DNA of 64,000 nt from Escherichia phage PECP20: the sequence record OQ873415.1. One strand, given 5' to 3'. A program made the translations under genes and the position numbers. Shown here in pieces: positions 18,818 to 36,570 of the stretch. The first letter of the stretch is position 1; the number at the start of each line of letters is the position of its first letter. The notes under the pieces were generated by a model. That model made no database searches. It was not told where the DNA came from and saw nothing but the letters and a program-made list of their open reading frames with translations.

Positions 18818-19013
18818 TTATAATTTCAACATCAGCCCAATGGCCGTAACTAGGCAGACGGTCTTCAATAGATAAACCACCGTCATTTTTAAGCATTTTA
18901 ATTGTCTTGATAAATGGTTCATCCTGTGGATGAATAGGCGAGCAGTCAGTTACACGATAAGTAACTTCGATCATTTCTGTACCAAACAATTTCTGGATTA
19001 GTTTATTCAACAT
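18801..19013 (-). CDS. hypothetical protein (70 aa)
   Basis: ORF in the 30.x cluster. Confidence 0.45.
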   Translation of the reverse strand: MLNKLIQKLFGTEMIEVTYRVTDCSPIHPQDEPFIKTIKMLKNDGGLSIEDRLPSYGHWADVEIISVKDV

Positions 19014-19200
19014 GTTTCAACCCTTTAATAGGAGATAACTCTTTACCCATACGTATGTCAGAAGTCCCATCAACCCATTGAACAGCATACGCTTCATTGA
19101 TAATTACGGCGGCGGTTTTAAATTCATGGAGAACTTTAAAAATCATCCCAGGGATTCCAACACCTTTTAATTGGACTGTTTGTGCTATTAAAAATTTCAT
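19003..19200 (-). CDS. hypothetical protein (65 aa)
   Basis: ORF directly downstream of an early promoter cassette. Confidence 0.45.
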   Translation of the reverse strand: MKFLIAQTVQLKGVGIPGMIFKVLHEFKTAAVIINEAYAVQWVDGTSDIRMGKELSPIKGLKHVE

Positions 19201-19224
19201 ATTTTTCCACTTGCTAAAGAAATC

Positions 19225-19255
19225 ATTATACTCTAATCCGTCCTTGGATGTAAAC
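19225..19255 (-). promoter_or_regulatory. sigma70-type early promoter
   Basis: Minus strand GTTTACA (plus 19250-19255), 18 nt, TATAAT (plus 19225-19230). Confidence 0.5.
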
Positions 19256-19869
19256 TACTTAACGAAATTAATTTCCACCGGATGAACAACAGGTTGAGCA
19301 GTGATATATTGAGTAATTGCTTTCATGACTAGAGCTTCAGAACCAGGATTTTTCTCAACGAATTCACGTGCTTGGTTATGAGCTTCGAGTTCACTCAATA
19401 ATCCGGAACGTTGGCATCCACGGTCTTGAGTACCCTGTTCAGATAAAAAGACGACGATGTATTTTTCATCGTCATACGGTTTAGACGGTTGAGCAAATGT
19501 TCCTTTACTTCCAAAAGGAGAGTTATGACGCCACATCACGCCGTGAGGAGTTTCAACCTTCGTATATTCGTGCGGGCCATTTTTCTTAATTTCTTGATGT
19601 GGAACTTCATAGACCTTAGGGTTAGGACATTCAATAAAATGCTCATCTAAATCGGTCGAGAATATTAAAGTAAAACAATTACTGAATTTACCAACACCTG
19701 CCTGATAAATTTTACCTTCAGAAGTTCTAATTTCACAAACCGAGCCAGCATCAGTAACTTCTAAAACTTCAAAAGGCTCGATAAGGTCATATGAGAACAT
19801 GTTTTTAAGGCGTGGAGTAATATCCCCATTTTTAAAATTCATTTTATAAAAAGTATTAACTTTAAACAT
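19255..19869 (-). CDS. hypothetical protein (204 aa)
   Basis: ATG at 19869 with SD GAGGAAA; the track start at 19899 lies inside the upstream terminator hairpin. Confidence 0.5.
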   Translation of the reverse strand: MFKVNTFYKMNFKNGDITPRLKNMFSYDLIEPFEVLEVTDAGSVCEIRTSEGKIYQAGVGKFSNCFTLIFSTDLDEHFIECPNPKVYEVPHQEIKKNGPHEYTKVETPHGVMWRHNSPFGSKGTFAQPSKPYDDEKYIVVFLSEQGTQDRGCQRSGLLSELEAHNQAREFVEKNPGSEALVMKAITQYITAQPVVHPVEINFVK

Positions 19870-19881
19870 AATTTCCTCACT

Positions 19882-19897
19882 GGGAGCCGAAGCTCCC
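19882..19897 (-). terminator. GC hairpin with GAAG/CTTC loop between accessory genes
   Basis: GGGAGCTTCGGCTCCC on the minus strand just after the upstream stop; weak U-tract, so possibly a partial terminator. Confidence 0.4.
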
Positions 19898-19904
19898 AAT
19901 TAAT

Positions 19905-20270
19905 TTAGATATCAAATTCATTAAGAACTACATCAAAGATTGCTTCGAGATGTTCAGGTTTAGCTCGGTTACTCAGGATATGACGAATCCAGGTTTTAAC
20001 CAGAAGTTTACGATTAACACCATTCCAGCAAGGATGAGTACCTAAATCGCGCTGACGGAAATCATCATCTAATGCAATTTTAAAATTTGAACCTTCCATC
20101 GTGATTGAAACCGTGATGCCATTTTCAAATCGCATATAAACATAATTAGGAGTCATGCACTGTTCGATTTCACAAACTGTACCGTTTTCGTGTTTCCATA
20201 AGCAAATAACTTCAGAAGAACCAGCGATACCGTTAGAAACATATTTACGTTCGAAGTTGATGTAGTTCAT
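19905..20270 (-). CDS. hypothetical protein (121 aa)
   Basis: ATG at 20270 preceded by SD GGAGAA and an early promoter cassette. Confidence 0.5.
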   Translation of the reverse strand: MNYINFERKYVSNGIAGSSEVICLWKHENGTVCEIEQCMTPNYVYMRFENGITVSITMEGSNFKIALDDDFRQRDLGTHPCWNGVNRKLLVKTWIRHILSNRAKPEHLEAIFDVVLNEFDI

Positions 20271-20300
20271 TTTATTCTCCAGATGTTTAAGTTGTTTGTT

Positions 20301-20340
20301 GGTACAGGTATATAATAACATATCCTGTACCAAAGTAAAC
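20301..20340 (-). promoter_or_regulatory. early promoter embedded in a palindrome
   Basis: Minus strand GTTTAC (plus 20335-20340); inverted repeat GGTACAGG/CCTGTACC (20301-20308 and 20324-20331) flanks the AT-rich -10 region. Confidence 0.45.
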
Positions 20341-20344
20341 TGTT

Positions 20345-20713
20345 TTATGCAACTTTAATCCAATTGTCTAAATTTAAAACACCTTTGGCTTTCATTTTTT
20401 CGATCAGGTTATCTGCTGTAATGCGTCCATTTTGATACCATGTAACATCTTCAGAGTAACCAGTTTCTTCGTCAACATATGTTTCTGAGCGAATTTTACC
20501 GGTAATAATAGTTTTTAATTCGTATGTGTCACCTGTGAAAAAGTTTGCTAACACAATTTTCCAAGAGAAATCATTTGAAGGACCTTCAGGGGTCATACAA
20601 CTTACGAACTCAAATTGCTCTTTGTATAACATCCACTGGAATTCTTTAATTTCGATAGCTTTATAACCGTCGTGTTCTTTACATTTGATGTATGAGTTCA
20701 GATTGATTTTCAT
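20345..20713 (-). CDS. hypothetical protein (122 aa)
   Basis: ORF with its own upstream promoter cassette. Confidence 0.5.
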   Translation of the reverse strand: MKINLNSYIKCKEHDGYKAIEIKEFQWMLYKEQFEFVSCMTPEGPSNDFSWKIVLANFFTGDTYELKTIITGKIRSETYVDEETGYSEDVTWYQNGRITADNLIEKMKAKGVLNLDNWIKVA

Positions 20714-20755
20714 TTTATTCTCCAGTTTGTTTTATTGATTAGGTGGTACAAGTCT

Positions 20756-20784
20756 ATAGTAACACATCCTACAGGAGAGTAAAC
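20756..20784 (-). promoter_or_regulatory. early promoter
   Basis: Minus strand GTTTAC (plus 20779-20784), 17 nt, TACTAT (plus 20756-20761). Confidence 0.45.
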
Positions 20785-20810
20785 ATCTTTTTAAACTTTT
20801 TCTGCCCTAA

Positions 20811-20838
20811 ACGCACAAAAGGGAGACCGAAGTCTCCC
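20811..20838 (-). terminator. rho-independent terminator
   Basis: Minus strand GGGAGACTTCGGTCTCCC then TTTTGTGCG; the 24 nt including the hairpin are identical to the gene 32 terminator at 35551-35573. Confidence 0.65.
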
Positions 20839-20843
20839 TAAAA

Positions 20844-21023
20844 TTATGCAACAACCTTTCCAAAACGAGAAGCATCATCTCGAAGAACTGCACGTGCTCT
20901 GCGCATGATCTTCTCAACTGTTTGATTAATACGAGAGTTCGACCCACGCTTGTATCCAGCGCGTTTAGAGGTACCATCAACTTTCTTTTCAACTGCTTTC
21001 TTTGCTTTAGCTTGTTTTGCCAT
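20844..21023 (-). CDS. small highly basic protein (59 aa)
   Basis: Hand-translated minus-strand ORF MAKQAKAKKAVEKKVDGTSKRAGYKRGSNSRINQTVEKIMRRARAVLRDDASRFGKVVA, ending 5 nt before the terminator hairpin; absent from the track because it is under 60 aa. Confidence 0.5.
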   Translation of the reverse strand: MAKQAKAKKAVEKKVDGTSKRAGYKRGSNSRINQTVEKIMRRARAVLRDDASRFGKVVA

Positions 21024-21286
21024 TATAAATTCTCTTTAAATGAAAATGCAGGACTTATTGACATTGCCTGCGCAAGCCCTCATGGGGAACATAGGTTTTG
21101 GATATTTAACGACAGGATAACCATAAACCCGTCATCATACCAACCACGACTTAGACAGATAACCTTTTTCTGACGCGTGATAGTACAAAATACATTCAAG
21201 AGGTACACCGTAAAACTGCCGGGGTCTTAAAACTATAATGATTCGCAAATCATTAATCAGACAATTCGACGGCTCCTCGATTTAAC

Positions 21287-21535
21287 TTACTTCAGGGTAA
21301 TAACAAAATGACGTACTGCTTTACGAGCTGCTGAAGCCAAAGGCTTAGCATATTTCAGTTCATCTTTTGCTTCCAGTTCAGCAGCCAGAGTAGCCTGAGC
21401 AGGATTCAGATGTTTGAAATATCGCAGGATTTCCAGTGCTTCGGCTTCAACATCAATTGAAGCGCCGTAGTTTTCGTGACCGTTATTCCATGCGTTGCGT
21501 TGCAGATCAAGAGCGTGTTGTAGTTGTTTAATCAT
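21287..21535 (-). CDS. rIII: rIII lysis-inhibition accessory protein
   Basis: 82 aa; MIKQLQHALDLQRNAWNNGHENYGASIDVEAEALEILRYFKHLNPAQ, T4 rIII-like. Confidence 0.9.
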   Translation of the reverse strand: MIKQLQHALDLQRNAWNNGHENYGASIDVEAEALEILRYFKHLNPAQATLAAELEAKDELKYAKPLASAARKAVRHFVITLK

Positions 21536-21651
21536 TTTAAATTCTCAATTCGAGATAATATTTAGTAGCCACGTTCGTCTGAATTTCACCTTCTTTCGAC
21601 AAGTCTCTCAGTTGTAGGCTACCGCTTAGAAGAGTGTTCTCTTCATATAGT

Positions 21652-21659
21652 TATTTATA
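21652..21659 (-). promoter_or_regulatory. late promoter (TATAAATA) upstream of rIII
   Basis: Plus-strand TATTTATA at 21652-21659, abutting the gene 31 stop. Confidence 0.45.
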
Positions 21660-21992
21660 TCACTTATAAAGACACGGAATAGCTTTATAGTGGCATGTTA
21701 CGAATTTCTGTTTAATTTCTTTAGGTTGTTTAAGTCCCAAAGCCACAAATGGATGTGGAACATTTCGAATTTGTCCAACTGGTAGTGGAGTCAAATCACC
21801 GACTTCAACAAAACCTTCAGGAACATCAGGACCTACAGAATGAACTACACATAGTTCAGGAACTTCACCTTGAACACGTTTACCAATCACAAGTCCTGAT
21901 TCGGTAACTTCTTCATCACCTGCTTGAGCGGGTTCAGAAACCAGAATGACATATTCACCAACAGCACGAATTGGGAGTTGTACTTCAGACAT
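21660..21992 (-). CDS. 31: gp31 co-chaperonin (GroES analogue)
   Basis: 110 aa; [60 protein letters not shown], near-identical to remembered T4 gp31. Confidence 0.95.
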
Positions 21993-22049
21993 CTTATTTC
22001 CTTGTTGTTTGACGATAGATTAATAATACCATACTATTCGTAAAGCATA

Positions 22050-22358
22050 TTACATAAGAAGCAAACGTTCGACCGGAGTACCATCAACCGAAATTACTTT
22101 ATCAAGGCGGAAAGAACGCCACTGACCTAACTTGGTATCGAATGCTCGAACTGATTCACGAGGTTCATAACGAACTTCTGTTGCCGGATTGTTATTTTCA
22201 TATTTGACTTCAAGTTCATCGCGCGAAGCAAACATAGTGCGTACATCACCGTTAGCCTTTTCAAATACAACACAATGAACGCCTACAGACAGAATAGTTT
22301 TAATACGTTCACGAAGAACCATAGTTTCTTGTTCAGTTAAAATCATATTATTCACCAC
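22050..22358 (-). CDS. hypothetical protein, 31.1 position (102 aa)
   Basis: ORF between cd and gene 31. Confidence 0.6.
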   Translation of the reverse strand: MVNNMILTEQETMVLRERIKTILSVGVHCVVFEKANGDVRTMFASRDELEVKYENNNPATEVRYEPRESVRAFDTKLGQWRSFRLDKVISVDGTPVERLLLM

Positions 22359-22929
22359 AAAAGTTTCGGATTTGTTCCCAATTCAGAGAACGAAGATTAT
22401 TACGAGAGTACTGAATTACTTCAATGCCAGCTTGTTTTAGAATGTCTGCCCAATTTTCAGGAGATCTGTCGTATAATTCTGCGTATACGACCTTTTTAAT
22501 ACCTGACTGCGTAATAGCTTTAGTACAATCAGGACATGGAGAAAGCGTCGTATATAACGTAGCACCTTCAATAGAATTACCTTTACGAGCGGCAAACAAA
22601 ATTGCATTCAATTCTGCATGGATTTCATTATTAGCAGACCATGCACTATGAGCAGCTCGATGTTCTTTGGCTAAAACAAAATTATCTACCCGTCCAAATG
22701 CTGTAGTGCCTTCTTTATGTCCAGCAACGATGACTGGGATTGGTTTATTCTTCAACCAACCATTTTCAGATGCATGTTCGCAACAGTTAACGCCACCTGC
22801 AGGTGAACCGTTATATCCAGTAGAGATAATGCGTCCATCTTTTTCAATGACGGCACCAACTTTCCATGAACAACATTTTGATTCTTGAGAAATCAGATAT
22901 GCAATCTGAAGGTATGTGCTAGCTTTCAT
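22348..22929 (-). CDS. cd: dCMP deaminase
   Basis: 193 aa; zinc motifs HAELNAI and SPCPDC; T4 Cd-like. Confidence 0.95.
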   Translation of the reverse strand: MKASTYLQIAYLISQESKCCSWKVGAVIEKDGRIISTGYNGSPAGGVNCCEHASENGWLKNKPIPVIVAGHKEGTTAFGRVDNFVLAKEHRAAHSAWSANNEIHAELNAILFAARKGNSIEGATLYTTLSPCPDCTKAITQSGIKKVVYAELYDRSPENWADILKQAGIEVIQYSRNNLRSLNWEQIRNFCGE

Positions 22930-23921
22930 TATTGAACCTTATTAATATAAGTTAACAGCTCTTTAGTTTGTTCCCAACTGATGCACGCATCGGTAACGGA
23001 AACGCCATAGGACATATTATCAGAAATTTTTTGATTTCCTTCATGTAGGAACGATTCTATCATAATTCCTTTGACCAAATCATTAGCTGCTAAATTTTTA
23101 CCAATACCAATTTGATTGCTATAATGCCCATCAGCGTTTGCATGGCTACAGTCAACCATTACATAATGATTCAGACCTACTGCCCTTGCTTTGTTAGAAG
23201 CTTCTTGAATATCAGAAGAATGATAGTTCGGACCGTTGGTCCCGCCACGCAATACGATATGCGTATTCTGATTACCTTCAGCTTCAACAATGCCTACAGT
23301 ACCATCGACGTCCATACCCATATACCGATGAGGCCAGGCAGCACTATACATCGCGTCTGTAGCTACTTTAATAGAACCATTGGTTGCGTTCTTGAAGCCT
23401 ACGCACATCGGTAGACCTGAAGCAATTTCACGATGTGTCTGACTTTCAGTCGTACGGGCGCCAATAGCAACCCATGAGAAAATACCAGAAAGATACTTAA
23501 TCGTGAATGGGTCTAATACTTCAGTTGCTAATGGAAGTCCCATACGTAGAAGTTTACGACACAATGTTCGTGCAACTATAAGACCGTGGTTCATATCAAA
23601 ACTTCCGTCAAGATATGGATCATTTACAAGACCTTTCCAACCTACGGTAGTTCGAGGCTTTTCAAAATAAACGCGCATCACTAACAGAACATTAGGAAGA
23701 CGAGTTTGAAGTTCAGCCAGACGTTTGCCGTATTCAACAGCAGCAATAGGGTCATGAATTGAACAAGGACCTACAACAATAAGTTTGCGTGGGTCTTCAC
23801 CGTTCATAATCGAATTAACTTGTTCGCGATGAGAAGCCACTTGTGATGCGTAAGCTTCCGACAAAGGAATAATCTCAGCCAGTTCTTTTGGAGAAATAAG
23901 TTTTCCGACGACAGGTAACAT
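22929..23921 (-). CDS. class-I DAHP synthase (3-deoxy-7-phosphoheptulonate synthase, AroG/F/H family) homologue
   Basis: 330 aa with AroG signature blocks VVGPCSIHD, MRVYFEKPRTTVGWKGL, AIGARTTESQTHRE, CVGFKN, IVLRGG, MVDCSHAN, GIMIESFLHEGNQ; stop overlaps the cd ATG; SD AAGGA. Confidence 0.8.
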   Translation of the reverse strand: MLPVVGKLISPKELAEIIPLSEAYASQVASHREQVNSIMNGEDPRKLIVVGPCSIHDPIAAVEYGKRLAELQTRLPNVLLVMRVYFEKPRTTVGWKGLVNDPYLDGSFDMNHGLIVARTLCRKLLRMGLPLATEVLDPFTIKYLSGIFSWVAIGARTTESQTHREIASGLPMCVGFKNATNGSIKVATDAMYSAAWPHRYMGMDVDGTVGIVEAEGNQNTHIVLRGGTNGPNYHSSDIQEASNKARAVGLNHYVMVDCSHANADGHYSNQIGIGKNLAANDLVKGIMIESFLHEGNQKISDNMSYGVSVTDACISWEQTKELLTYINKVQ

Positions 23922-24041
23922 AACAATCCTTAGGAGATATAAACAGATTCTGATTCAACAATACCTTTAACCGGATTAGACAGGCTAAGTTGGTAGTGCT
24001 CAGATTTATGACCATTCTCGATAGTAATGAGATAGCTCTCA

Positions 24042-24278
24042 TTATAGTGTTCCATATACTCGAGTTGCTTCAACAAGACCATCACTGCCTAATTTAAGAT
24101 TAGTAATTTGGTCACCATCTTTAGGATTAACGATTATGAGAAAAGAACGTGGAGATTCTTGAATAACTCGTAATGTTGCATCTTGGAAACGTTCAGACAC
24201 TTTATTGATGAGTGCTTGAGCAAATTCTTTTACTTTAATCTGAAATTCGTGTACTGTAATTGGGTTTTCACTTAGCAT
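24042..24278 (-). CDS. hypothetical protein (78 aa)
   Basis: ORF upstream of the DAHP synthase gene. Confidence 0.5.
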   Translation of the reverse strand: MLSENPITVHEFQIKVKEFAQALINKVSERFQDATLRVIQESPRSFLIIVNPKDGDQITNLKLGSDGLVEATRVYGTL

Positions 24279-24304
24279 TTCTATTTCCTCATTTTGGTAG
24301 AGTC

Positions 24305-24334
24305 ATCATATCACAACTCTACGGTGTTGTAAAC
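24305..24334 (-). promoter_or_regulatory. early promoter
   Basis: Minus strand GTTTAC (plus 24329-24334), 18 nt, TATGAT. Confidence 0.4.
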
Positions 24335-24610
24335 TTAAATTGCAAAACATTTAATTTCTTGTGAATCGAAATCAACTTCGCACTGAATTACTAGTTCAGC
24401 ATCAAGTCCAAACACAACAATCACATGAGCCGAGCTGGGCAACAGTGTAACGGACACAGAATCCACTTGGTCAGGCACCAGCGTATTCAAAACGTAGAGT
24501 AGTTCAGAGTGGATCTTAAGCTCTGTAGCCGTGTCCAGCTTATCAAAGAAATGATTTGCGATAATCTGACTAAAAACGACCTTTACAATTTCAGAATATT
24601 TAGGGAACAT
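24335..24610 (-). CDS. hypothetical protein (91 aa)
   Basis: ORF in the cd.x-equivalent cluster. Confidence 0.5.
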   Translation of the reverse strand: MFPKYSEIVKVVFSQIIANHFFDKLDTATELKIHSELLYVLNTLVPDQVDSVSVTLLPSSAHVIVVFGLDAELVIQCEVDFDSQEIKCFAI

Positions 24611-24617
24611 AATTACC

Positions 24618-24842
24618 TCAGTGTACAGTATTTACTTTAACTCGAACAACAAATTGCTCGGTCGGTTCGCCTACAGGAACAAACTCTACATGATATTCAC
24701 CTTTGTAACGAGTATTCAGATCATTACGAATTCCTGCGAGTTTGTTGATTAATGTAGGACTCATATTAAGTCCCACTAGTTTACGAAGCATTTTGTATGC
24801 TTCATCTTCGATTTCATGATGTTTATCGTACATAATTTTCAT
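24618..24842 (-). CDS. hypothetical protein (74 aa)
   Basis: ORF in the cd.x-equivalent cluster. Confidence 0.5.
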   Translation of the reverse strand: MKIMYDKHHEIEDEAYKMLRKLVGLNMSPTLINKLAGIRNDLNTRYKGEYHVEFVPVGEPTEQFVVRVKVNTVH

Positions 24843-25013
24843 TTAACCATTCAATTGCCTGGTCGACGTTATCAAATATACCACCGTCCAAACGTTCTTC
24901 ATGCTCATAGTCCAGCACATCAATACCGAACTGTCCATTTACTAAAGGCCAGGCTACAAACAAATATTCTTTATGATGTTCGATGGCCTCAATCACTTCA
25001 TATAATCGTTTCA

Positions 25014-25014
<1 letters not shown>
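24823..25014 (-). CDS. hypothetical acidic protein (63 aa)
   Basis: ORF coupled (ATGA) downstream of pseT. Confidence 0.5.
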
Positions 25015-26100
<1,086 letters not shown>

Positions 26101-26101
<1 letters not shown>

Positions 26102-26400
26102 TATTTGATTCCTAAGAAAGCTTCAAGAATACGAATGTTGAGTTCGCGCCGGTCTTTATTAATTTCAGCAACGTTTTTATTAATTGACGTACTTCTAACG
26201 TTTGAAGAAATAAATTTAATCATATGACTTTTGAGTTGTTGCAAATCCAACCCTTTTTCTTTAGCAGCTTTACGAAGAGCTTTACCTGCTTCATCTAGTG
26301 CCTTTGCTGCATCTTCGTCATAATTGTCAAGTGACATTCCACGGCAGATATCAATATACTCATCCGACCGTTTGATGTAATTCTCTAGTAATATTTTCAT
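26101..26400 (-). CDS. hypothetical protein (99 aa)
   Basis: ORF downstream of an early promoter cassette. Confidence 0.5.
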
Positions 26401-26428
26401 TTAGATTTCCTCAATTATCCATGGGAGC

Positions 26429-26458
26429 ATTATACTCTGCTCCCGAGAGTTTGTAAAC
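26429..26458 (-). promoter_or_regulatory. early promoter with -10 inside a palindrome
   Basis: Minus strand GTTTAC (plus 26453-26458), 18 nt, TATAAT (plus 26429-26434); inverted repeat GGGAGCA/TGCTCCC (26423-26444); about 40 bp near-identical to the cassette upstream of ndd. Confidence 0.55.
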
Positions 26459-26682
26459 TATTTTACTAAAGATTCAATATACTCATGAAGAGCTTTAGTC
26501 GCAACTGCCCACTTGTTCTGATATTCATTTTTCAGATTAGCACGAGACTGAACTAACAAGCGGTCATTAGTCGGAGGCAAAGATTCTAATCGTTGAATCT
26601 GACGGCCGTAAATCATAGCCGCCATTTCAGAGTCATAGATAAGTCCTTTAAGGTATTCATGCTGTTCTTTAGTCATTGACAT
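26458..26682 (-). CDS. hypothetical protein (74 aa)
   Basis: ORF between the spanin pair and the promoter cassette. Confidence 0.5.
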   Translation of the reverse strand: MSMTKEQHEYLKGLIYDSEMAAMIYGRQIQRLESLPPTNDRLLVQSRANLKNEYQNKWAVATKALHEYIESLVK

Positions 26683-26963
26683 TTTTCCTCTTTTAAACCA
26701 CTACGATAATAACATAACATAGTCTTCTGGTCATGTACATATCTTTTTACGTCGTTTAACCAGATACGAAATTCTTGAGAGTCTTCAAATGGCATTCCAA
26801 CCCATGGATTACCATCAATAACCTTTACTTGCCATTTCTGGTTATATTCAACAATAGATTCAGGCCATTGCGGATGTAAAGTTTCTTTAGGGCTTACTGG
26901 CACATCCTGGGCACATCCAGCCAAAATGCCAATAGATAATACAACTGCGGTTAATTTAATCAT
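26673..26963 (-). CDS. pseT.2: o-spanin (outer-membrane lipoprotein spanin subunit)
   Basis: 96 aa; signal peptide with lipobox LAGC (MIKLTAVVLSIGILAGC), Pro-rich mature part; overlaps the i-spanin gene; the T4 spanins map to pseT.2/pseT.3. Confidence 0.8.
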   Translation of the reverse strand: MIKLTAVVLSIGILAGCAQDVPVSPKETLHPQWPESIVEYNQKWQVKVIDGNPWVGMPFEDSQEFRIWLNDVKRYVHDQKTMLCYYRSGLKEEKCQ

Positions 26964-27316
26964 TCTGAGAGCTTCCTGAGGTCTTCTGCAAAGGAATCGA
27001 AGGACCTGTTGATTTGTTTTTCAACCAATCCTGGTTTACTTGCCACCACGTTCTTCTTCTTCGAATCCTTACGGAGCTTTTCATTTTCAGCCTTAAGTTG
27101 GTCAACTAAAACACGGTTCTTATAAGTCATTTCTTCGATTGACTGATATTGAACTTTGAAGTCGTCTAATACTTTAGCATTGTTTTTAGCAGCCTCTTTA
27201 ACAGAAGCCAATTCAGTATTCAACGAATCAACTTTGTTGTTTAAGACAACTATTGTTACAGTAGAAACTAGAGCAAAAGCTGCTACTATAGCATAAATCG
27301 GATTTACTTTAAGCAT
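26960..27316 (-). CDS. pseT.3: i-spanin (inner-membrane spanin subunit)
   Basis: 118 aa; N-terminal TM helix IYAIVAAFALVSTVTIVVL followed by coiled-coil-like charged region. Confidence 0.8.
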   Translation of the reverse strand: MLKVNPIYAIVAAFALVSTVTIVVLNNKVDSLNTELASVKEAAKNNAKVLDDFKVQYQSIEEMTYKNRVLVDQLKAENEKLRKDSKKKNVVASKPGLVEKQINRSFDSFAEDLRKLSE

Positions 27317-27804
27317 GTTTTAATAATCTCAATGATTTCATCTCGGGATAATCCATTGATAAGAACGGTTTTCAAACCATCACACTGGATTTTGTACGAT
27401 TCAAACATTACACACAACTCTTCTGCTGTATGATACGGGCTTGAGATTCCGAGACGGTTGAATTTGTCGGTAAGAGGATCGCAAATAATATAGAATTTGA
27501 TACCTGCGATATGCACGTTAGGCTGGCTAATATTAATGAACACATTAGCGTCATATTTAGTCAAGTTGTTTTGGAGAAATTCTACCATAGCATTAACTGC
27601 TTCCGGCATCGCTTCGCGTTTCTCTTCAGCGTATCGGGTGGAATACTCTTTTTGTTTTACTTTCTTTTTAAGATTTTTGGCCAGAGTAACACGTAGGTCA
27701 GTAAGATAACCAACTGGACGTCCTTTCTTAAAGACTCGGATTCCGTCAGTTGTGTCTCCAAAAGCGGTTACGACCATATCGTTAGTAATCAATTGCATAT
27801 TCAT
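27304..27804 (-). CDS. alc: Alc, inhibitor of host transcription
   Basis: 166 aa at the T4 alc position upstream of the spanins; T4 Alc is 167 aa. Confidence 0.75.
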   Translation of the reverse strand: MNMQLITNDMVVTAFGDTTDGIRVFKKGRPVGYLTDLRVTLAKNLKKKVKQKEYSTRYAEEKREAMPEAVNAMVEFLQNNLTKYDANVFINISQPNVHIAGIKFYIICDPLTDKFNRLGISSPYHTAEELCVMFESYKIQCDGLKTVLINGLSRDEIIEIIKTCLK

Positions 27805-27834
27805 AATTTTCTCCTCGTGTTGTTGATAAAAGCC

Positions 27835-27864
27835 ATAGTAATACCTTCCTTGGTGTTTGTAAAC
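27835..27864 (-). promoter_or_regulatory. early promoter for alc
   Basis: Minus strand GTTTAC (plus 27859-27864), 18 nt, TACTAT (plus 27835-27840), then CAACAACACGAGGAGAA RBS block. Confidence 0.5.
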
Positions 27865-27866
27865 CG

Positions 27867-29000
<1,134 letters not shown>

Positions 29001-29045
29001 TCAGTTAGTTTTTTAAATTGTACCACAATCCTTGTGGTATGTAAA

Positions 29046-29456
29046 CTACTTTTTCTTATGTTGGATATTCCAAGGCGGGTTGAACTTTTTGATAAAAAGT
29101 GGTTCTTCAAGGTCCATTGTTGCAATGGTCATTGAACCAAGTTCGTTAGTGACTGAAAGGTCAAAACATTGGCGGGCCCAGAATTCAACCTTTTTGCCTT
29201 GCATTAAGGCATCCAAAATCATAAGTGATTTTCTTGAATCTGAAGTCTGGTCTTTTCGATTTATGGCTGTTCGATAATAGTTAATGCGTTTCTTTAAATT
29301 CTTGGTTTTACCAATATACACAAGTTCGTCATCTATAGCAATAGCGTATATGACATTTTTCTTATTAGGGGCATCAATGGTTTTAATTGTTGCATCTTCT
29401 AATAGCTCCAATTCTATATATTTAATAAAGGAATATTCGGCGGCAATATCTTTCAT
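29046..29456 (-). CDS. denA: endonuclease II (GIY-YIG)
   Basis: 136 aa; MKDIAAEYSFIKY...NVIYAIAIDDELVYIGKTKNLKKRINYYR...PPWNIQHKKK, T4 DenA-like. Confidence 0.92.
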   Translation of the reverse strand: MKDIAAEYSFIKYIELELLEDATIKTIDAPNKKNVIYAIAIDDELVYIGKTKNLKKRINYYRTAINRKDQTSDSRKSLMILDALMQGKKVEFWARQCFDLSVTNELGSMTIATMDLEEPLFIKKFNPPWNIQHKKK

Positions 29457-29482
29457 AATAAAGTGGGACCGAAGTCCCGTCC

Positions 29483-30661
29483 TTAGAAATATTTTTTGTA
29501 TGAATTGATTACATTTTGGTCTACATCATTATCAATTTGTGCAACAAGATAAGAACTGATTTCAACTTCCTGAGGAGCTGCTTGAACTAAATCAGAGTTC
29601 AGATATTCACGAATCCAAGGATACGGATGCTTGGTCGGAGCGTCAGTGATTGGGCATGGCAAACCGCACTGTTTCATACGAGACACAGTCAAGTAATCAA
29701 CAAAAGCACACATACTCTGAGTATTGATACCTGGACATGTACCATCTTTAAAAAGGTGTGCAGCCCATTCCTTCTCTTGACTATTTACTTCCATAAAAAT
29801 GTCAACTGCTTCTTGTTCACATTCTTTAGCAATTTGAACCCACTCATCACCGTCAGTACCAGATTGAAGTTGACGGATAATGTACTGAGTACCCTTGAGA
29901 TGGAGTTGTTCGTCACGAGCAATGAACTTCATAATCTTTGCATTGCCTTCCATAATTTCCATATTTTTATGGAAGTTGAAAGTACATGCAAATGATACGT
30001 AAAAACGAATAGCTTCTAAGGCGTTGATAACATGCAAACAGAGATAAAGAGACTTCATTAGGTCATGTTTACATTCTTCAATGTGCATAAGACTATTTGA
30101 ATATGCATCTAAATCATATTCATTTTCGGAAAAACACTTAAAAATTTCTTTAGCATTTTCCCATTCACGGGTTTTAATCAAAACGTCATCATAATAACGT
30201 CCAATGGATTCAGCGCGTTTCATAATAGCTTCATCTAATACAATTTCATCAAATACCTTCGATGGATCAGTATAAAGATTTCGCATAATATGAGTATACG
30301 AACGAGAGTGAATAGTTTCACTGAATGTCCATGTTGCGACCCATGTATCTAATGAAGGGTCAGAAATCAGTGCCATAAGTACCGCAGATGGGGCCCTGCC
30401 TTGGATAGAATCTAATAATGATTGATACTTAAGATTGTTTGTAAAGATGTCCTGTTGGAACTGAGGAAGCTTATTGAACTGCGCAGAGTCCAACATCAAG
30501 TTTACCTCTTCTGGACGCCAGAAAAATGACAAGGATTTTTCTATAAGTTCTTCGAAAACTTTATGACGCTGAATATCATACCGTGCGAGGCCAAGACCAG
30601 AACCAAAGAACATCGGTTCATTCAAAACATCGACTTGTTGCGTGTTAAAAACTGTACTCAT
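29483..30661 (-). CDS. nrdB: ribonucleotide reductase beta subunit (intronless)
   Basis: 392 aa, class Ia R2 with di-iron ligand context; continuous ORF with no intron. Confidence 0.93.
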   Translation of the reverse strand: MSTVFNTQQVDVLNEPMFFGSGLGLARYDIQRHKVFEELIEKSLSFFWRPEEVNLMLDSAQFNKLPQFQQDIFTNNLKYQSLLDSIQGRAPSAVLMALISDPSLDTWVATWTFSETIHSRSYTHIMRNLYTDPSKVFDEIVLDEAIMKRAESIGRYYDDVLIKTREWENAKEIFKCFSENEYDLDAYSNSLMHIEECKHDLMKSLYLCLHVINALEAIRFYVSFACTFNFHKNMEIMEGNAKIMKFIARDEQLHLKGTQYIIRQLQSGTDGDEWVQIAKECEQEAVDIFMEVNSQEKEWAAHLFKDGTCPGINTQSMCAFVDYLTVSRMKQCGLPCPITDAPTKHPYPWIREYLNSDLVQAAPQEVEISSYLVAQIDNDVDQNVINSYKKYF

Positions 30662-30716
30662 TATATTTTCTCACTTAGTTATTAACTCATCCATGAGTAA
30701 ATTATAATCAAAAGTC

Positions 30717-32972
30717 TTAAAGCTTACAAGCAGAACAATCTTCAGCTTTAGGTGTTTCTAATTCATAGTCATCTGTACCTGACCCATCACGAGTGTTATG
30801 ATAGTAGAGGTTTTTTCCGCCAAAGTACCAGAAGTAAAGCAGATCGTCAAGCATTACTGACATTGGCACTTTACCTTTCTCAAATACTGCAGGGTCATAG
30901 TAAGTATTAGCAGAAGCAGATTGGCACACCCATTTCAACATGATAGCAACTTGGGTCAAATAAGGTTTATTACCTTTCTTAGCAAGTTTCCACGCATAGT
31001 CATAAAGACCCATGTTGTGTTCAATATTAGGAACTACTTGACGGAAATTACCTTCTTTAGATTCTTTAATACTTACTGGGCCACGAGGTGGTTCAATACC
31101 GTTTGTGCTATTTGAGACCTGGCTGCTTGATTCGCATGGCATGAGTGCAGACAACGTTGAGTTACGAATTCCGTGTTCTTTGAGTTCAGCTCGAAGTTCT
31201 TTCCAGTCGCAGACGTAGTTCGGGGCTGCGATTTGGTCAATCTTTTTATTGTACCAGTCGATAGGTAATTCGCCTCGAGACCATTTAGTGTCTGAATAAT
31301 ACTCGCAAGGTCCTTTTTCTTTGGCGAGTTTGATTGAAGCTTTGATAAGGCCATATTGCAATCTCTCAAACAATTCATGAGTCAAATCGTTAGCGTCTTC
31401 ATATGAAGCAAAGTTAGAAGATAACCATGCAGCATAGTTCGTCACACCAACACCGAGATTTCGACGCTTTTTGGCTTTTAAAGCTTCTGGAACCGGATAG
31501 TCTTGATAGTCTAACAGGTTATCAAGTGCACGTACTTGTACTTCAGCAAGTTCATTAATTTTATCTTGGTCTTGCCAATCAAATTTATCTAATACAAAAG
31601 CAGATAACGTGCATAAACCAATTTCAGCATCAGGGCCATTCACATCATTAGTTGGAATAGCGATTTCACAACATAAGTTACTCTGACGAATTGGAGCTTT
31701 TTCACGAATAAATGGAGTGTAGTTATTCGTGTTATCAACAAACTGTGGATAAATTCGAGCAGTACCAGAACGTTCAGTCATGAACAATTCAAAGAGTTCT
31801 AGTGCTTTGATTCTTTTCTTTCTGATTGTTGGGTCTTTTTCAGCTTTCTCATAAAGCTCACGGAATTTATCTTGATCTTCAAAGAACGAGTAATATAGTT
31901 CGCCTGACATTTCGTGAGGGCTAAATAAAGTAATATAATCATTTTTGCCAAGGCGTTCCATCATGAGGTCATTAATCTGAATTCCATAGTCCATATGTCG
32001 AATACGGTTTTCATCCACGCCTTTGTTATTTTTCAGAACTAATAGGTTCTCTACTTCTAAGTGCCACATCGGATAATACGCTGTAGCAGCACCACCACGA
32101 ATACCACCTTGAGAACAAGATTTTACTGCAGTTTGGAAATGTTTCCAGAATGGAATAACACCCGTATGTCGAACTTCACCCATACCGATCTTAGAACCTT
32201 CTGCACGAAGCATACCAACGTTGATACCGATACCAGCTCGTTTAGAAATATATTCAATAATTGATGCTGAAGTTTTGTTAATAGATTTTAACGAATCACC
32301 AGCTTCAATAACTACACAACTAGAGAACTGGCGAGTTGGAGTACGAGCACCTGCCATAATTGGAGTAGGCAACGAAACTTGATGAGTAGAAACGGCATCA
32401 TAAAAACGAATAATATGTTTCAAACGGCCATGAGTTTCGTCTTGATGTAAGGCCATACCAATGGCCATGATAGCAAACTGTGGAGTTTCATAAATCTTCC
32501 CAGTTGTTTTATCTTTAACCAGGTATTTTTCTTTAAGCTGCATAGCACCAGCATAAGTCAGATCAAAATCTCGCTCATGTTTAATCCGAGAATCAAGATA
32601 AATGATTTCTTCTGCAGAATATCTAGACAACAACTCAGGATCATATTTGCCTTCATTAACACAATACGAGATATGGTCGATAAAAGCAGGAGGTTCAAAC
32701 TGACCATACACATCTTTACGAAGTGCAAACATTAATCCTTTAGCGGCAACATATTGATAATCAGGTTCTTCGACAGAAATCGAGTTAGCTGCAACTTTAA
32801 TACAAATCTTCTGGATATCTTTGGTGCTCATCCCATCAACCAGATGAGTCTTAATTTCTTCATACAATTCGTATGGGTCGATTTGTGTTCCTTCACACTG
32901 CCAAGTTAAGACTTGAATAATTTTCTGTGCATCAAAATTTTGGGATACCCCACTGCTCTTAGTTACTTGCAT
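30717..32972 (-). CDS. nrdA: ribonucleotide reductase alpha subunit
   Basis: 751 aa; class Ia R1 with C-terminal CSACKL-type tail. Confidence 0.95.
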   Translation of the reverse strand: MQVTKSSGVSQNFDAQKIIQVLTWQCEGTQIDPYELYEEIKTHLVDGMSTKDIQKICIKVAANSISVEEPDYQYVAAKGLMFALRKDVYGQFEPPAFIDHISYCVNEGKYDPELLSRYSAEEIIYLDSRIKHERDFDLTYAGAMQLKEKYLVKDKTTGKIYETPQFAIMAIGMALHQDETHGRLKHIIRFYDAVSTHQVSLPTPIMAGARTPTRQFSSCVVIEAGDSLKSINKTSASIIEYISKRAGIGINVGMLRAEGSKIGMGEVRHTGVIPFWKHFQTAVKSCSQGGIRGGAATAYYPMWHLEVENLLVLKNNKGVDENRIRHMDYGIQINDLMMERLGKNDYITLFSPHEMSGELYYSFFEDQDKFRELYEKAEKDPTIRKKRIKALELFELFMTERSGTARIYPQFVDNTNNYTPFIREKAPIRQSNLCCEIAIPTNDVNGPDAEIGLCTLSAFVLDKFDWQDQDKINELAEVQVRALDNLLDYQDYPVPEALKAKKRRNLGVGVTNYAAWLSSNFASYEDANDLTHELFERLQYGLIKASIKLAKEKGPCEYYSDTKWSRGELPIDWYNKKIDQIAAPNYVCDWKELRAELKEHGIRNSTLSALMPCESSSQVSNSTNGIEPPRGPVSIKESKEGNFRQVVPNIEHNMGLYDYAWKLAKKGNKPYLTQVAIMLKWVCQSASANTYYDPAVFEKGKVPMSVMLDDLLYFWYFGGKNLYYHNTRDGSGTDDYELETPKAEDCSACKL

Positions 32973-33007
32973 ATATTCCTCAGTATAGGTTGATAGACAT
33001 TACTCCA

Positions 33008-33059
33008 AACGGGATAGTATTTATCCCGTTAATTTATTATACACTTTTAAACTGAAGCG
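33008..33059 (-). promoter_or_regulatory. probable middle promoter plus 5' leader hairpin for nrdA
   Basis: Minus strand CGCTTCA (MotA-box-like, plus 33053-33059), 11 nt, TATAAT (plus 33036-33041), then 9-bp stem AACGGGATA/TATCCCGTT (33008-33030) before SD GAGGAA. Confidence 0.45.
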
Positions 33060-33062
33060 TTA

Positions 33063-33314
33063 ATTATTCTTAGCAATAATTTCTTTGTATTCTTTAGGTG
33101 TCAAGACTGTGATATTGAAATAAACCAACGGTTCTTTTTCCATACCGTAACCACCACAAAATTCACGATATTCATAAATTCGTTCGTGTGAATGACAAAT
33201 GAATCGTTCACCTTTAACTGTGATTTCACTATTCGGTGAAGGGATATCCAGTTCACTTGGATTTTTCATTTCAAAAATTGTGGTGCCATATGAATTAATA
33301 AAACGTAAAATCAT
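33063..33314 (-). CDS. hypothetical protein (84 aa), nrdA.1 position
   Basis: ATG at 33314 one nt after the td stop; the track ORF extension overlaps td. Confidence 0.5.
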
Positions 33315-33315
33315 T

Positions 33316-34176
33316 TTATACCGCCATTTTAGCTTTGATAGCTGGATGTGATTCGTAATTTTTAAGAATGAAATCACTCGGATTCATATGCTCTGTTACC
33401 CAATGAAGCTGTAATGTCGTGCTCCAATCAGAGAATCCTTCAGGCCAATCAATTTTAAGTTCACACAGTTCTTTAGGCTCACGACGAAGAACTTCTTTGC
33501 ATTGCTCAACATGGTTGCTGTAGATATGCGTGTTGCCGCCTGAGAACACTAAATCACCTGGGATAAGATTACACATCTTAGCCACAATATGCGTCAAGGC
33601 AGCGTACGAGGCAATGTTGAACGGCAGGCCCAAGAAAACATCTACACTGCGTTGATACCATTGTAAATCAAGATGTCCATTACGCACATTAAATTGATAG
33701 AACATATGACAAGGAGGAAGAGCCATTTGGTCAATTTCGGCAGGGTTCCAGGCAGAAACAATTTGACGACGATCAGTTGGTAATTTTTTAATACGGTCGA
33801 TTGTTTCAACTAATTGGTCCACACCACCGAAATCACGCCATTGTTTACCATATATAGGACCAAGTTCACCACTATGATAACCAAGGTCTTTTGCCTGATT
33901 TTCGTAATTATCGTCCCAAATAGTTTTACCTTCAATTAGACTACCATGAGTACGAAGACGTAATTCATTAACATTAGTAGAACCGGACATGAACCACAGT
34001 AACTCGGCAATACAAGCTTTCCATGCTAATTTCTTAGTTGTTACTGCAGGGAATCCTTTAGTCAGGTCCCAACGTAATTTAGTTCCGAACAGGGCAATTG
34101 TTCCTGTGCCTGTACGGTCGTCTGTTTCGTAGCCATTTTCTAGGATATCATTAATCAGGTATTGGTATTGTTTCAT
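33316..34176 (-). CDS. td: thymidylate synthase (intronless)
   Basis: 286 aa continuous ORF with ThyA core motifs (LPPCHMFYQF, active-site Cys context). Confidence 0.95.
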   Translation of the reverse strand: MKQYQYLINDILENGYETDDRTGTGTIALFGTKLRWDLTKGFPAVTTKKLAWKACIAELLWFMSGSTNVNELRLRTHGSLIEGKTIWDDNYENQAKDLGYHSGELGPIYGKQWRDFGGVDQLVETIDRIKKLPTDRRQIVSAWNPAEIDQMALPPCHMFYQFNVRNGHLDLQWYQRSVDVFLGLPFNIASYAALTHIVAKMCNLIPGDLVFSGGNTHIYSNHVEQCKEVLRREPKELCELKIDWPEGFSDWSTTLQLHWVTEHMNPSDFILKNYESHPAIKAKMAV

Positions 34177-34760
34177 TTATATACGCTCTCAGTAATTTCG
34201 GTGAGTTCATCGATTCTGTAGTAATGAGATTCTACCATAGAACGTTGAAGCATAATATCTTGGATGAAATCTTTATCAAGTTGAACATCGGAATTAACAC
34301 GACATTTCTTAATGATTTTAGTCATCACAATTTCATCGGCATAAGGCAGTGCTTGTTTTAATAAGGCAGGACCGCCGATAACAGATACATCAACATGTTC
34401 AGTAGAAAGTTTAAACGGTACGTCTGTTGAAGGGCTGAACAAGTTAATTTCACTACCAGTCACCAGGGTAATAAATTCTGCTTGGGTGATATAGAACCGT
34501 GCAAGTTCATCAGTTTTAGTCCTAGGCAGTTTTCTGGCCATATCAGTGACAACCACATGAGTACGATCTGGTAGTAGACGAGGTAATGATGCAAAAGTCT
34601 TAGCACCCATAACCAATACAGTGTTTTTAGTGCGAGCAACAAAGTTACTCATATCTTGTTTGATATGCTTCCATGGAAGTCCATCACCTAATCCAAAAGC
34701 ATATTCCAGTTTATCATCAACTGTTTTAGATGGTGCGCATGCGAATACTAATTTAAGCAT
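34173..34760 (-). CDS. frd: dihydrofolate reductase
   Basis: 195 aa; MLKLVFACAPSKTVD...FGLGDGLPW...VMGAKTF, T4 Frd-like; ATGA overlap with td. Confidence 0.93.
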   Translation of the reverse strand: MLKLVFACAPSKTVDDKLEYAFGLGDGLPWKHIKQDMSNFVARTKNTVLVMGAKTFASLPRLLPDRTHVVVTDMARKLPRTKTDELARFYITQAEFITLVTGSEINLFSPSTDVPFKLSTEHVDVSVIGGPALLKQALPYADEIVMTKIIKKCRVNSDVQLDKDFIQDIMLQRSMVESHYYRIDELTEITESVYK

Positions 34761-34762
34761 TT

Positions 34763-35011
34763 TTATTTCCTCAGATTTTTCTTAACAACCTTCCAATCAG
34801 CTTTGAACATTTCAACGTCAGAGTGGCAAATCCAGAATCCTGCACTTTCACCATCTTCATAGAGTGGACATCCATCACATTCTTCGTTCCAACCCATTTC
34901 ACGTAAAGCTTCTTCAGCTTGTTCAAGGAGTTCAGCGTCTTTACCGACGATGTTGAAGTACCATTTACCTCTAACTTCAGAATCTTTGATGCTCTGACGT
35001 TGCAATCTCAT
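34763..35011 (-). CDS. hypothetical protein (82 aa), frd.1 position
   Basis: ATG at 35011 with SD GGAGAA; contains a C-x2-C pair (CDGCPLYEDG); the track ORF start lies inside the promoter. Confidence 0.5.
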   Translation of the reverse strand: MRLQRQSIKDSEVRGKWYFNIVGKDAELLEQAEEALREMGWNEECDGCPLYEDGESAGFWICHSDVEMFKADWKVVKKNLRK

Positions 35012-35073
35012 TTTATTCTCCTTCACTTTTGATTTGATAGGGCTACTATAACATAACCCTATCTGATTGTACA

Positions 35074-35466
35074 CTACTTTTTAAAAGTTTTTTGCAAAAG
35101 TTCGATGATTTCGTCGACGTTGGTTTCATCTACGATACAATGGATTTTTGTTACACCTAAAGTTATACCTTCGTTAGTAGTTTGAGGCTTTACTAAATCT
35201 ACCTCAGTAAAGTATTTGAACTCGTCAGGATAAATCTCAAAATAAGTTCCAATTTCACCACCGGCAGAACATACAGTACCATCTTCCATAGTTACACTTA
35301 CTACGTTTGGCGTATCGCTATCATAATCAGGTTCCATTCCGTTTACAACAAAACTAGGCCCATGGAGTTCAATCAATTTTAACATCTTAGCGTTATTATG
35401 TGGTGCTTCTTGAACAAAGTCGTCTTTAAATAAAGGGTTAATGATATAAGATTTTCCGATTTCCAT
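35074..35466 (-). CDS. hypothetical acidic protein (130 aa), frd.2 position
   Basis: ORF with SD GAGGAAA downstream of an early promoter cassette. Confidence 0.55.
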   Translation of the reverse strand: MEIGKSYIINPLFKDDFVQEAPHNNAKMLKLIELHGPSFVVNGMEPDYDSDTPNVVSVTMEDGTVCSAGGEIGTYFEIYPDEFKYFTEVDLVKPQTTNEGITLGVTKIHCIVDETNVDEIIELLQKTFKK

Positions 35467-35492
35467 TTTGATTTCCTCATGTTGTTGATAGG

Positions 35493-35524
35493 TCTATACT
35501 AACACATCCATGGAAGAAGTAAAC
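35493..35524 (-). promoter_or_regulatory. early promoter cassette
   Basis: Minus strand GTTTAC (plus 35519-35524), about 19 nt, TATAGA, then CAACAACATGAGGAAA block; same cassette family as 13400-13429 and 27835-27864. Confidence 0.4.
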
Positions 35525-35550
35525 AACTTTTTCGGCAATTTACAGATACT

Positions 35551-35573
35551 CAAAAGGGAGACCGAAGTCTCCC
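35551..35573 (-). terminator. rho-independent terminator downstream of gene 32
   Basis: Minus strand GGGAGACTTCGGTCTCCC then TTTTG, 6 nt after the gene 32 stop. Confidence 0.7.
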
Positions 35574-35579
35574 GATTTA

Positions 35580-36482: not shown

Positions 36483-36560
36483 TATATTTACCTTTATTTA
36501 AATTATTTAATTTATTTACAGTTGGTTGCTACGACACTTATACCTCGTAGCTGGTATGAT
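36483..36560 (-). promoter_or_regulatory. gene 32 autoregulatory translational operator (hairpin/pseudoknot plus A/U-rich tract)
   Basis: Leader reads CCAGCTACGAGGTATAAGTGTCGTAGCAACC (7-bp stem) followed by AAATAAATTAAATAATTTAAATAAAGG before the ATG, matching the known T4 gene 32 operator organisation. Confidence 0.6.
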
Positions 36561-36562
36561 TT

Positions 36563-36570
36563 ATTTATAA
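36563..36570 (-). promoter_or_regulatory. late promoter (TATAAATA) upstream of gene 32
   Basis: Plus-strand TATTTATA at 36563-36570. Confidence 0.45.

Follow-up and report, generated by a model that had tools for sequence, protein, structure and literature searches.

Why does the short sequence that separates pseT.1 from the next open reading frame (ORF) in Escherichia phage PECP20 recur at other gene junctions of the same genome, and what do its copies do? The question was addressed in a window of 64 000 nucleotides, the whole stretch of DNA analysed (sequence record OQ873415.1), to which all coordinates refer unless stated otherwise. Based on the sequence alone, the original prediction had placed positions 26423-26458 in a family of minus-strand cassettes combining an early promoter, a stem-loop and a ribosome-binding site, which were thought to match the promoter-early stem-loop (PeSL) elements of T4-type phages and to be capable of mediating gene shuffling. 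Our analysis suggests, with a probability of about 85%, that the sites are sigma-70-dependent early promoters followed by a short leader without structure and by a strong ribosome-binding site, and that most of them also carry a hairpin and constitute PeSL cassettes.

The window shared 96-98% identity with Mosigvirus phages (the RB69/PhAPEC2 group: CCU7, AlbertHofmann, F31), and judged by its sequence the source is an RB69/PhAPEC2-like T-even phage (Mosigvirus). The gene layout, using annotation carried over from phage AlbertHofmann, is as follows:

First block, minus strand: rnlB, hoc, uvsY
Second block, plus strand: baseplate genes 51-54
Third block, first part, minus strand: alt, 30, 30.x, rIII, 31, cd, pseT, alc, rnlA, denA
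Third block, remainder, minus strand: nrdB, nrdA, td, frd, 32, 59, 33, rnh
Fourth block, plus strand: tail-fibre genes 34-38, t
Fifth block, minus strand: asiA, arn, motA, 52, ndd, denB, rIIB, rIIA, 39, goF

The window differs from RB69 by a few indels. Its most divergent parts relative to close relatives were an internal segment of hoc (1231-1886), the Hoc protein being 58% identical to that of AlbertHofmann, and internal segments of the distal tail-fibre genes 37/38 (44773-48649). Because a search of IMG/VR with the Alc protein resulted in the identification of only 10 loci, the comparative panel was assembled from GenBank phage records.

The pattern GTTTAC-N16-19-TANNNT was found 18 times in the window, compared with 3.95 +/- 1.9 expected from dinucleotide shuffles, a count that was reached in none of 100 shuffles; 17 of the 18 matches were on the minus strand. 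An iterated two-block weight matrix built on the window identified 19 sites at a cut-off of at least 16 bits, all on the minus (early-gene) strand. On the plus strand of the window the same scan gave no site of 8 bits or more, and neither the baseplate nor the tail-fibre block on that strand contained one. All 15 previously listed sites were recovered at their coordinates. The GTTTAC that they were said to share was present in 13 of them but replaced by ATTTAC at site 38822 and by TTGTAC at site 54799 (sites and cassettes are cited by their highest coordinate). Four sites were additional to that list (653-624, 29046-29017, 35074-35045 with GTGTAC, and 51583-51554), two of which, 653 and 51583, lie inside ORFs. 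A generic sigma-70 scan had no discriminating power, with 79 sites against 65 +/- 8 expected, and the cassettes ranked at its top. No match was obtained anywhere in the window with Rfam at gathering thresholds. The cassettes and associated elements are listed below.

624-653, minus strand: promoter-like core in a small ORF, 88 nt before the next start codon, with the spacing of RB69 Pe:112451
13368-13429, minus strand: alt/alt.-3 cassette, with TGn and leader ATCAACAACATGAGGAAA, without a strong hairpin
19198-19255, minus strand: cassette in a replaced block (204-aa ORF, cassette, 65-aa ORF) where RB69 has gene 30.6
20268-20340, minus strand: 30.8/30.7 cassette, hairpin GGTACAGG...CCTGTACC (20301-20331) around the -10, MFE -18
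20711-20784, minus strand: 30.9/30.8 cassette, terminator-type hairpin GGGAGACTTCGGTCTCCC-TTTT ahead of it (20821-20838)
24276-24334, minus strand: cd.3/cd.2 cassette, hairpin 24297-24322, orthologue of T4 early promoter Pe133295
26398-26458, minus strand: focal cassette between pseT.1 and a 99-aa ORF (RB69ORF231c-like), orthologue of RB69 Pe:136687; -35 GTTTAC overlapping the TAG stop of pseT.1, -10 TATAAT at 26434-26429, SD GAGGAAA, ATG at 26400
26423-26444, minus strand: stem of the focal cassette, 7 bp, GGGAGCA/TGCTCCC around the -10, MFE -12.3
27802-27864, minus strand: rnlA/alc cassette, no hairpin
28989-29046, minus strand: denA/rnlA cassette, weak spacer hairpin (ACCACAAGGATTGTGGT)
35009-35074, minus strand: frd.2/frd.1 cassette, -35 GTGTAC, hairpin 35036-35063 around the -10
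35464-35524, minus strand: gene 32/frd.2 cassette, intrinsic terminator ahead of it (35556-35573)
38757-38822, minus strand: rnh cassette, -35 ATTTAC, orthologue of T4 Pe148.6
49608-49674, minus strand: asiA cassette, a matrix site ahead of asiA
51554-51583, minus strand: weaker promoter-like core in motA, -10 TAAGAT, 92 nt before arn.4
52102-52169, minus strand: downstream cassette of the 321-bp module, ahead of motA, preceded by hairpin GGGCTTTTGAAAAAGAGCCC (52178-52197)
52170-52490, minus strand: 321-bp module consisting of cassette, 71-aa ORF (52207-52422; phrog_6200) and hairpin
52420-52490, minus strand: upstream cassette of the module, ahead of the 71-aa ORF, preceded by terminator GGGAGCCGAAGCTCCC-TTTT (52518-52533)
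54723-54799, minus strand: ndd cassette, paralogue of the focal cassette, -35 TTGTAC, hairpin 54763-54786
55000-55061, minus strand: ndd.1 cassette, hairpin 55023-55050
55514-55572, minus strand: cassette between denB and an RB69ORF270c-like ORF, hairpin GTAGGACT...AGTCCTA (55536-55560)

The sites have a common layout of an A-rich upstream region, GTTTAC, a spacer of 16-18 bp, usually TGn, and TAnnnT. The -35 hexamer is exactly GTTTAC in 16 of the 19 (the variants being GTGTAC, ATTTAC and TTGTAC), and the extended -10 element TGn is present in 14. The 21 nt upstream of the -35 are 62-90% A+T with A-runs adjoining the hexamer, where the consensus reads AAAgca-GTTTAC; the full consensus is AAA..GTTTACA..(spacer)..TGnTAYWAT-AGNCCTATCAA. 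A loose start-site block, CCTATCAA, is common in the consensus of the matrix sites; within it, transcription is predicted to begin at an A some 7 nt past the -10. Seventeen of the 19 sites are intergenic and face early genes, with 18-38 nt from the predicted +1, and 24-45 nt from the -10, to the ATG; the leader of 18-38 nt contains GAGG or GGAG and ends at the ATG. The upstream gene ends at or near the promoter in 11 sites, with a stop codon that overlaps the -35 or is no more than 12 nt away. The block CAACAACATGAGGAAA, described as following the -10 in many sites, does exist, but its frequency had been overstated: it is exact only at 13376-13391 and 35472-35487, and two more minus-strand sites have it with up to 3 mismatches. 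Both pairs reported as near-identical were confirmed, with 43 of 47 aligned bases matching between 26458 and 54799 and about 46 of 55 between 13429 and 35524. A third and longer pair, which had not been named, is formed by 52169 and 52490 (about 75 of 86 bases).

The matrix built on the window was applied to RB69, F31, phi25-307, AlbertHofmann, IME08 (Dhakavirus) and T4, where it identified 12-19 sites per genome, confined to the early strand in each case. Conservation in related genomes, on which the proposal depended, was borne out: the gene junctions occupied in the window are also occupied in RB69, in three further Mosigvirus phages, in IME08 and in T4. The site-to-site distances in the window reproduce those of 16 of the early promoters that Nolan et al. 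2006 (PMC1524935) predicted for RB69, and the gene junctions agree. Sites 19255 and 52490 are missing from the RB69 list because RB69 does not have those genes. The sequence of the weak intragenic site 51583, the core of which is conserved in Mosigvirus relatives, is present in RB69 and is not in the list of Nolan et al. 2006. Agreement at single-nucleotide precision with published T4 early promoters was obtained for two sites. For the T4 orthologue of site 24334, the predicted +1 at 133295 coincides with Pe133295 of the T4 record, which names an 'early promoter Pe133295 between cd.2 and cd.3'. For that of site 38822, the predicted +1 is at 150727, the first map unit of the stretch that follows Pe148.6, a T4 promoter found to be active 1 min after infection by primer extension.

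Nolan et al. 2006 (PMC1524935) noted several features in the early promoters of RB69: GTTTAC, enrichment of A between -40 and -44, and C residues from -3 to -1. The window sites have all of these in common with the T4 early promoters and the predicted RB69 promoters, GTTTAC being at -35, and share with them TGn and a -10 with A at -11 and T at -7 as well. This set of features fits the 'UP/-35/TGn/-10' class of T4 early promoters (review by Hinton) and also the consensus of T4/PST PeSLs, TTTACW-N17-TAYWAT. No genome-wide study of T4 5' or 3' ends by sequencing was found in the literature; promoter activity in PECP20 is inferred from sequence and orthology, and host RNA polymerase would be expected to fire these promoters at once after infection, without phage factors.

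It is so improbable as to be nearly negligible that the sites are MotA-dependent middle promoters rather than early promoters. Both cassettes near motA (52141-52169 and 52462-52490) do have a MotA-box-like TGCTTCA in the spacer; however, it lies only 7 nt from the -10, where the middle-promoter consensus needs 11-13 nt. Middle promoters are without a -35, whereas all sites have a GTTTAC-type hexamer, and the T4 middle-promoter arrangement (MotA box TGCTT(t)A centred at -30, no -35) was found at none of them. In addition, two of the T4 orthologues are named early promoters.

Folding of the region from the end of the -35 to +22 past the -10, with z-scores against shuffles, indicated that the proposed enclosure of the -10 in a palindrome applies strongly to seven of the 19 sites (20340, 24334, 26458, 35074, 54799, 55061 and 55572) and not to the others. 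These seven hairpins have an MFE of -12 to -18 kcal/mol and z-scores of -2.8 to -5.9. A weaker hairpin is located within the spacer of site 29046, and at the remaining sites folding of the -10 region was the same as in shuffles. A wider scan identified a strong hairpin upstream of the -35 at four further cassettes, 20784, 35524, 52169 and 52490. Those of 20784, 35524 and 52490 are canonical UUCG or GNRA terminators with a T-run, resembling the intergenic intrinsic terminators of T4 in GC stem, tetraloop and T-run. A strong hairpin in a position allowed for PeSLs is thus present at 11 of the 17 intergenic sites. It is absent at 8 of the 19 sites overall, and since five to eight sites are without any stem-loop, not every promoter here is a PeSL.

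Hairpins around the -10 were found at 7 of the 11 sites in which the upstream stop codon is within 12 nt of the -35, compared with 0 of the 6 other intergenic sites (Fisher p = 0.017), and -10 hairpins and upstream terminators are mutually exclusive. The former are not canonical intrinsic terminators, because they have a long loop (6-14 nt) and no U-tract or T-run, unlike the intergenic intrinsic terminators of T4. A scan over 19000-38900 for intrinsic terminators, defined by a GC-rich stem, a loop of 3-8 nt and a subsequent T-run, called none of the four -10-enclosing hairpins in this interval while calling 35573-35556 and other UUCG hairpins; the remaining three -10-enclosing hairpins likewise have no T-run.

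The -10 hairpins have their 5' arm within the spacer, and their 3' arm extends from just past the -10 to about +3 (covering approximately -6 to +3). Their dyad axis in most cases separates the first two bases of the -10 hexamer. Of the 61 stems with 7 bp or more from all genomes, 35 have the axis in this register, between -12 and -11; random positions gave a flat distribution. The inner stem is partly forced by the quasi-palindromic TGn/-10 consensus and the outer 4-8 pairs are not. Arm sequences differ by slot (GGGAGCA, GTAGGAT, GATAGGG, GTAGAGT and GGTACAGG). Pairing is nevertheless kept where sequences change: the focal stem appears as AGGAGCA/TGCTCCT in three relatives including AlbertHofmann and phi25-307, and the ndd paralogue 54799 has GAGAGCA/TGCTCTC in place of GGGAGCA/TGCTCCC. 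An alignment of 32 cassettes with a -10 hairpin showed two-sided changes in 9 of 11 pairs, the sequences having been chosen for possessing a stem. Conservation of slots across genera is less circular evidence than this count. The hairpin is kept in T4 and/or IME08 at the slots 30.8/30.7 (20340, where the stem is conserved in both), cd.3/cd.2, frd.2/frd.1 and pre-ndd, and at frd.2/frd.1 it is kept in T4 and IME08 with changed sequence and register.

These data bear on two alternatives. The hairpins might be functionless, arising as a side effect of the quasi-palindromic TGn/-10 consensus and of shared ancestry among the cassettes, many copies of which are paralogues or orthologues of each other. 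Three to five consecutive pairs in the same register are already present in cassettes without a hairpin, yet the outer stems add 4-8 pairs past the consensus, and in three genera the hairpins have been retained at corresponding slots despite sequence turnover. They also occur only where a stop codon abuts the -35, an upstream hairpin being found elsewhere, and we regard absence of function as unlikely. Considerably less likely still is that the palindromes over the -10, which the original prediction regarded as possible regulatory binding sites, are operators for a dimeric DNA-binding protein such as an early-promoter shut-off factor. A dyad axis that most hairpin cassettes have at one position, between -12 and -11, would suit such a protein, and the shut-off mechanism of T4 early promoters has been described as unknown; the arms, however, differ between sites, compensatory substitutions preserve pairing and not a half-site, only 7 of the 19 promoters have a palindrome, and the register shifts at the frd.2/frd.1 slot in T4 and IME08.

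The role proposed for the hairpins is instead in RNA. They had also been considered as RNA 5' hairpins, a suggestion that was rejected for the transcript of the promoter itself, as the predicted start is inside the 3' arm and the leaders fold with about 0 kcal/mol. With the start in the 3' arm and the promoter's own transcript unstructured, the hairpin would form only in RNA reading through from the upstream gene. There it may serve the upstream cistron as a 3'-end structure that attenuates or terminates its transcription or stabilises its RNA, a role already proposed for PeSLs. Where the upstream gene ends right at the -35, such a structure would have to be accommodated in the promoter; where room exists, a separate terminator-type hairpin would be placed upstream. 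Terminator activity has been measured only for the G(n)/C(n) stem of the RB49 type, from which the stems in the window differ.

Sequestration of the SD by the spacer in read-through RNA was also considered and rejected for the cassettes of the window, in which the pairings were weak and not significant; it was convincing for the alc and alt.-3 cassettes of T4 and the alc cassette of IME08. The two T4 cassettes (-35 at 136336 for alc and 123093 for alt.-3) are identical over about 55 nt, and in their read-through RNA the spacer pairs with the SD region at -24.4 kcal/mol, compared with -1.8 for the promoter's own transcript. This pairing would limit translation to locally initiated transcripts. 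In IME08, the spacer of the alc cassette contains a perfect anti-SD of 9 nt (TCTCCTCAT); that of the window contains none.

The -10 palindromes could conceivably form cruciforms cut by a phage structure-specific nuclease, making these promoters recombination hot spots, or DNA or RNA structures that aid the shut-off of early promoters. We consider either role doubtful, slightly more so than absence of function; if true, it would be a mechanistic layer of PeSLs so far undescribed.

The proposed involvement of the cassettes in gene shuffling is supported by the gain and loss of the 71-aa ORF at 52207-52422, which is bracketed by two cassettes. The 321-bp module 52170-52490 is flanked by near-identical cassettes of approximately 75-95 bp, the order in the window being gene 52, terminator, cassette, 71-aa ORF, hairpin, cassette and motA, and the repeat extends from the -35 to ATGTCTAAA. 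The module is present in 76 phage records and missing from relatives at 95-97% identity. RB69 and phi25-307 lack it, and each has a single chimeric cassette instead. Alignment of the cassettes from the motA region (99 columns, 91% mean column identity) showed that the left part of the RB69 cassette is upstream-like and that it is downstream-like from the leader onward, whereas the phi25-307 cassette is upstream-like as far as the SD. Two different junctions imply at least two events, as homologous recombination predicts, and the alignment indicates repeated homologous recombination between the cassettes at 52170-52490. Crossovers at different places in the repeat are difficult to reconcile with a dedicated site-specific system acting on the cassettes, a mechanism left open by Arbiol et al., and no recombinase gene is linked to the cassettes in annotated relatives; we consider such a system highly improbable. 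General homologous recombination of the phage would, on the preferred reading, occasionally cross over between copies by virtue of their near-identity over 40-95 bp, and each crossover could delete, insert or swap the genes that the cassettes flank, along with the expression signals belonging to them.

Between gene 52 and motA, the module is present in 0, 1 or 2 copies depending on the phage. IME08 has two tandem modules in this slot (165963-166585 in record coordinates), each a promoter with a small ORF and with nearly identical cassettes, followed by a third cassette before motA, and T4 has the unrelated small gene motA.1. The leader block ATCAACAACATGAGGAAA of cassette 35464-35524 is at the junction where RB69 has the extra gene RB69ORF245c, which is missing from the window and is flanked in RB69 by two copies of the leader block, ATCAACAAATGAGGAAA. 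A single type of cassette can also precede different genes. The GAGCAGAGTATAATGCTC cassette is located ahead of three that are unrelated, ndd, the 99-aa ORF of Mosigvirus and a 160-aa ORF of Dhakavirus-like contigs, the latter two occupying the same slot. The GTAGGACT...AGTCCTA cassette is found ahead of at least 5 unrelated ORFs in IMG/VR contigs, with a promoter context at 12 of 14 loci. In the comparison of flanking gene content with relatives, the 321-bp module is cassette-bounded but most indels relative to close relatives are not. Of about 10 early-region indels that distinguish the window from four Mosigvirus relatives, only 2-3 were bounded by cassettes; the others consisted of homing-endonuclease-like inserts, a DAHP-synthase gene and internal gene variation.

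Several of the variable stretches can be described individually. An insert at 22929-24055 between cd and cd.2, absent from RB69 and T4, contains a 41-aa ORF and a gene of 330 aa that resembles DAHP synthase and is annotated as aroF or aldolase in relatives, and the borders of the insert are away from promoter cassettes. At 19003-19869, a 204-aa ORF (phrog_17531), a promoter cassette and a 65-aa ORF take the place of RB69 gene 30.6, the left border of the replacement being a UUCG hairpin and SD common to the window and RB69. The td-frd-frd.1 stretch (34173-35011) is variable in comparison with AlbertHofmann, F31 and phi25-307: in AlbertHofmann an HNH-like homing-endonuclease ORF separates td from frd, and F31 and phi25-307 have an extra 232-bp frd.1-like copy. 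In phi25-307, genes 59 and 33 are also separated by a 671-bp insert. None of the indel borders in td-frd-frd.1 or 59/33 is at a cassette.

The element class is already known (Nolan 2006, PMC1524935; Arbiol 2010, PMC2839356; Comeau 2014, PMC4122927), and the layout found here fits the published definition of PeSLs, as had been predicted. The stem-loop of a PeSL may precede or cover the -35, fall within the spacer, cover the -10 or follow directly after it, and PeSL copies are conserved over tens of bases to about 100 bp (PMC2839356; PMC4122927), as are the near-identical pairs of the window. The cassettes of the window resemble them in the combination of an early promoter with a stem-loop in one of several positions, in the upstream stop codon within an AT-rich region, in the SD and start codon at the 3' end, and in the repetition of copies across regions of small genes of unknown function (PMC2839356; PMC4122927). 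Ten small ORFs next to cassettes all belong to PHROGs of unknown function; several flanked genes (alc, rnlA, motA and ndd), however, are conserved. The presence of two cassettes around one gene here and of one chimeric cassette in a relative is a further likeness to described PeSLs (PMC2839356; PMC4122927), and the T4/PST elements are alike both in their consensus, TTTACW-N17-TAYWAT, and in AGNA...TCNT-type stems. Unlike described PeSLs, the window cassettes explain a minority of indels.

PeSLs have been described for RB49/phi1, T4/PST and KVP40/nt-1 and not explicitly for RB69-like phages, to which the same regulatory and recombination architecture would thus extend. Nothing departs from the published descriptions of PeSLs or RB69 promoters, and the overall significance is limited; the fixed dyad position and the mutual exclusion of -10 hairpins and upstream terminators are small refinements. 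The 321-bp promoter-plus-gene module is polymorphic among phages that are 95-99% identical, with different junctions in two genomes lacking it. For annotation, the 19 sites would define the early transcription units of the region. They would also mark where accessory genes are most easily exchanged, which may be useful for engineering or comparing therapeutic T-even phages.

Some further features of terminators and leaders were observed. The terminator hairpin GGGAGACTTCGGTCTCCC-TTTT occurs in identical form after gene 32 (35556-35573) and after 30.9 (20821-20838), on the minus strand. Other GC-stem hairpins with UUCG or GNRA tetraloops are located in the intergenic spacers at 19882-19897, 29465-29478, 56387-56400 and 52518-52533, the first of them directly before an SD and not after a gene. 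GGAG is the motif at which the T4 RegB endoribonuclease cleaves early mRNAs. SD sequences containing it (TGGAGAATAAAATG, TTGGAGAAATAAAATG, GAGGAGAAAATT) are present in many cassette leaders, namely those at 20270-20300, 20713-20745, 27804-27830, 35011-35035, 52104-52135 and 52422-52455.
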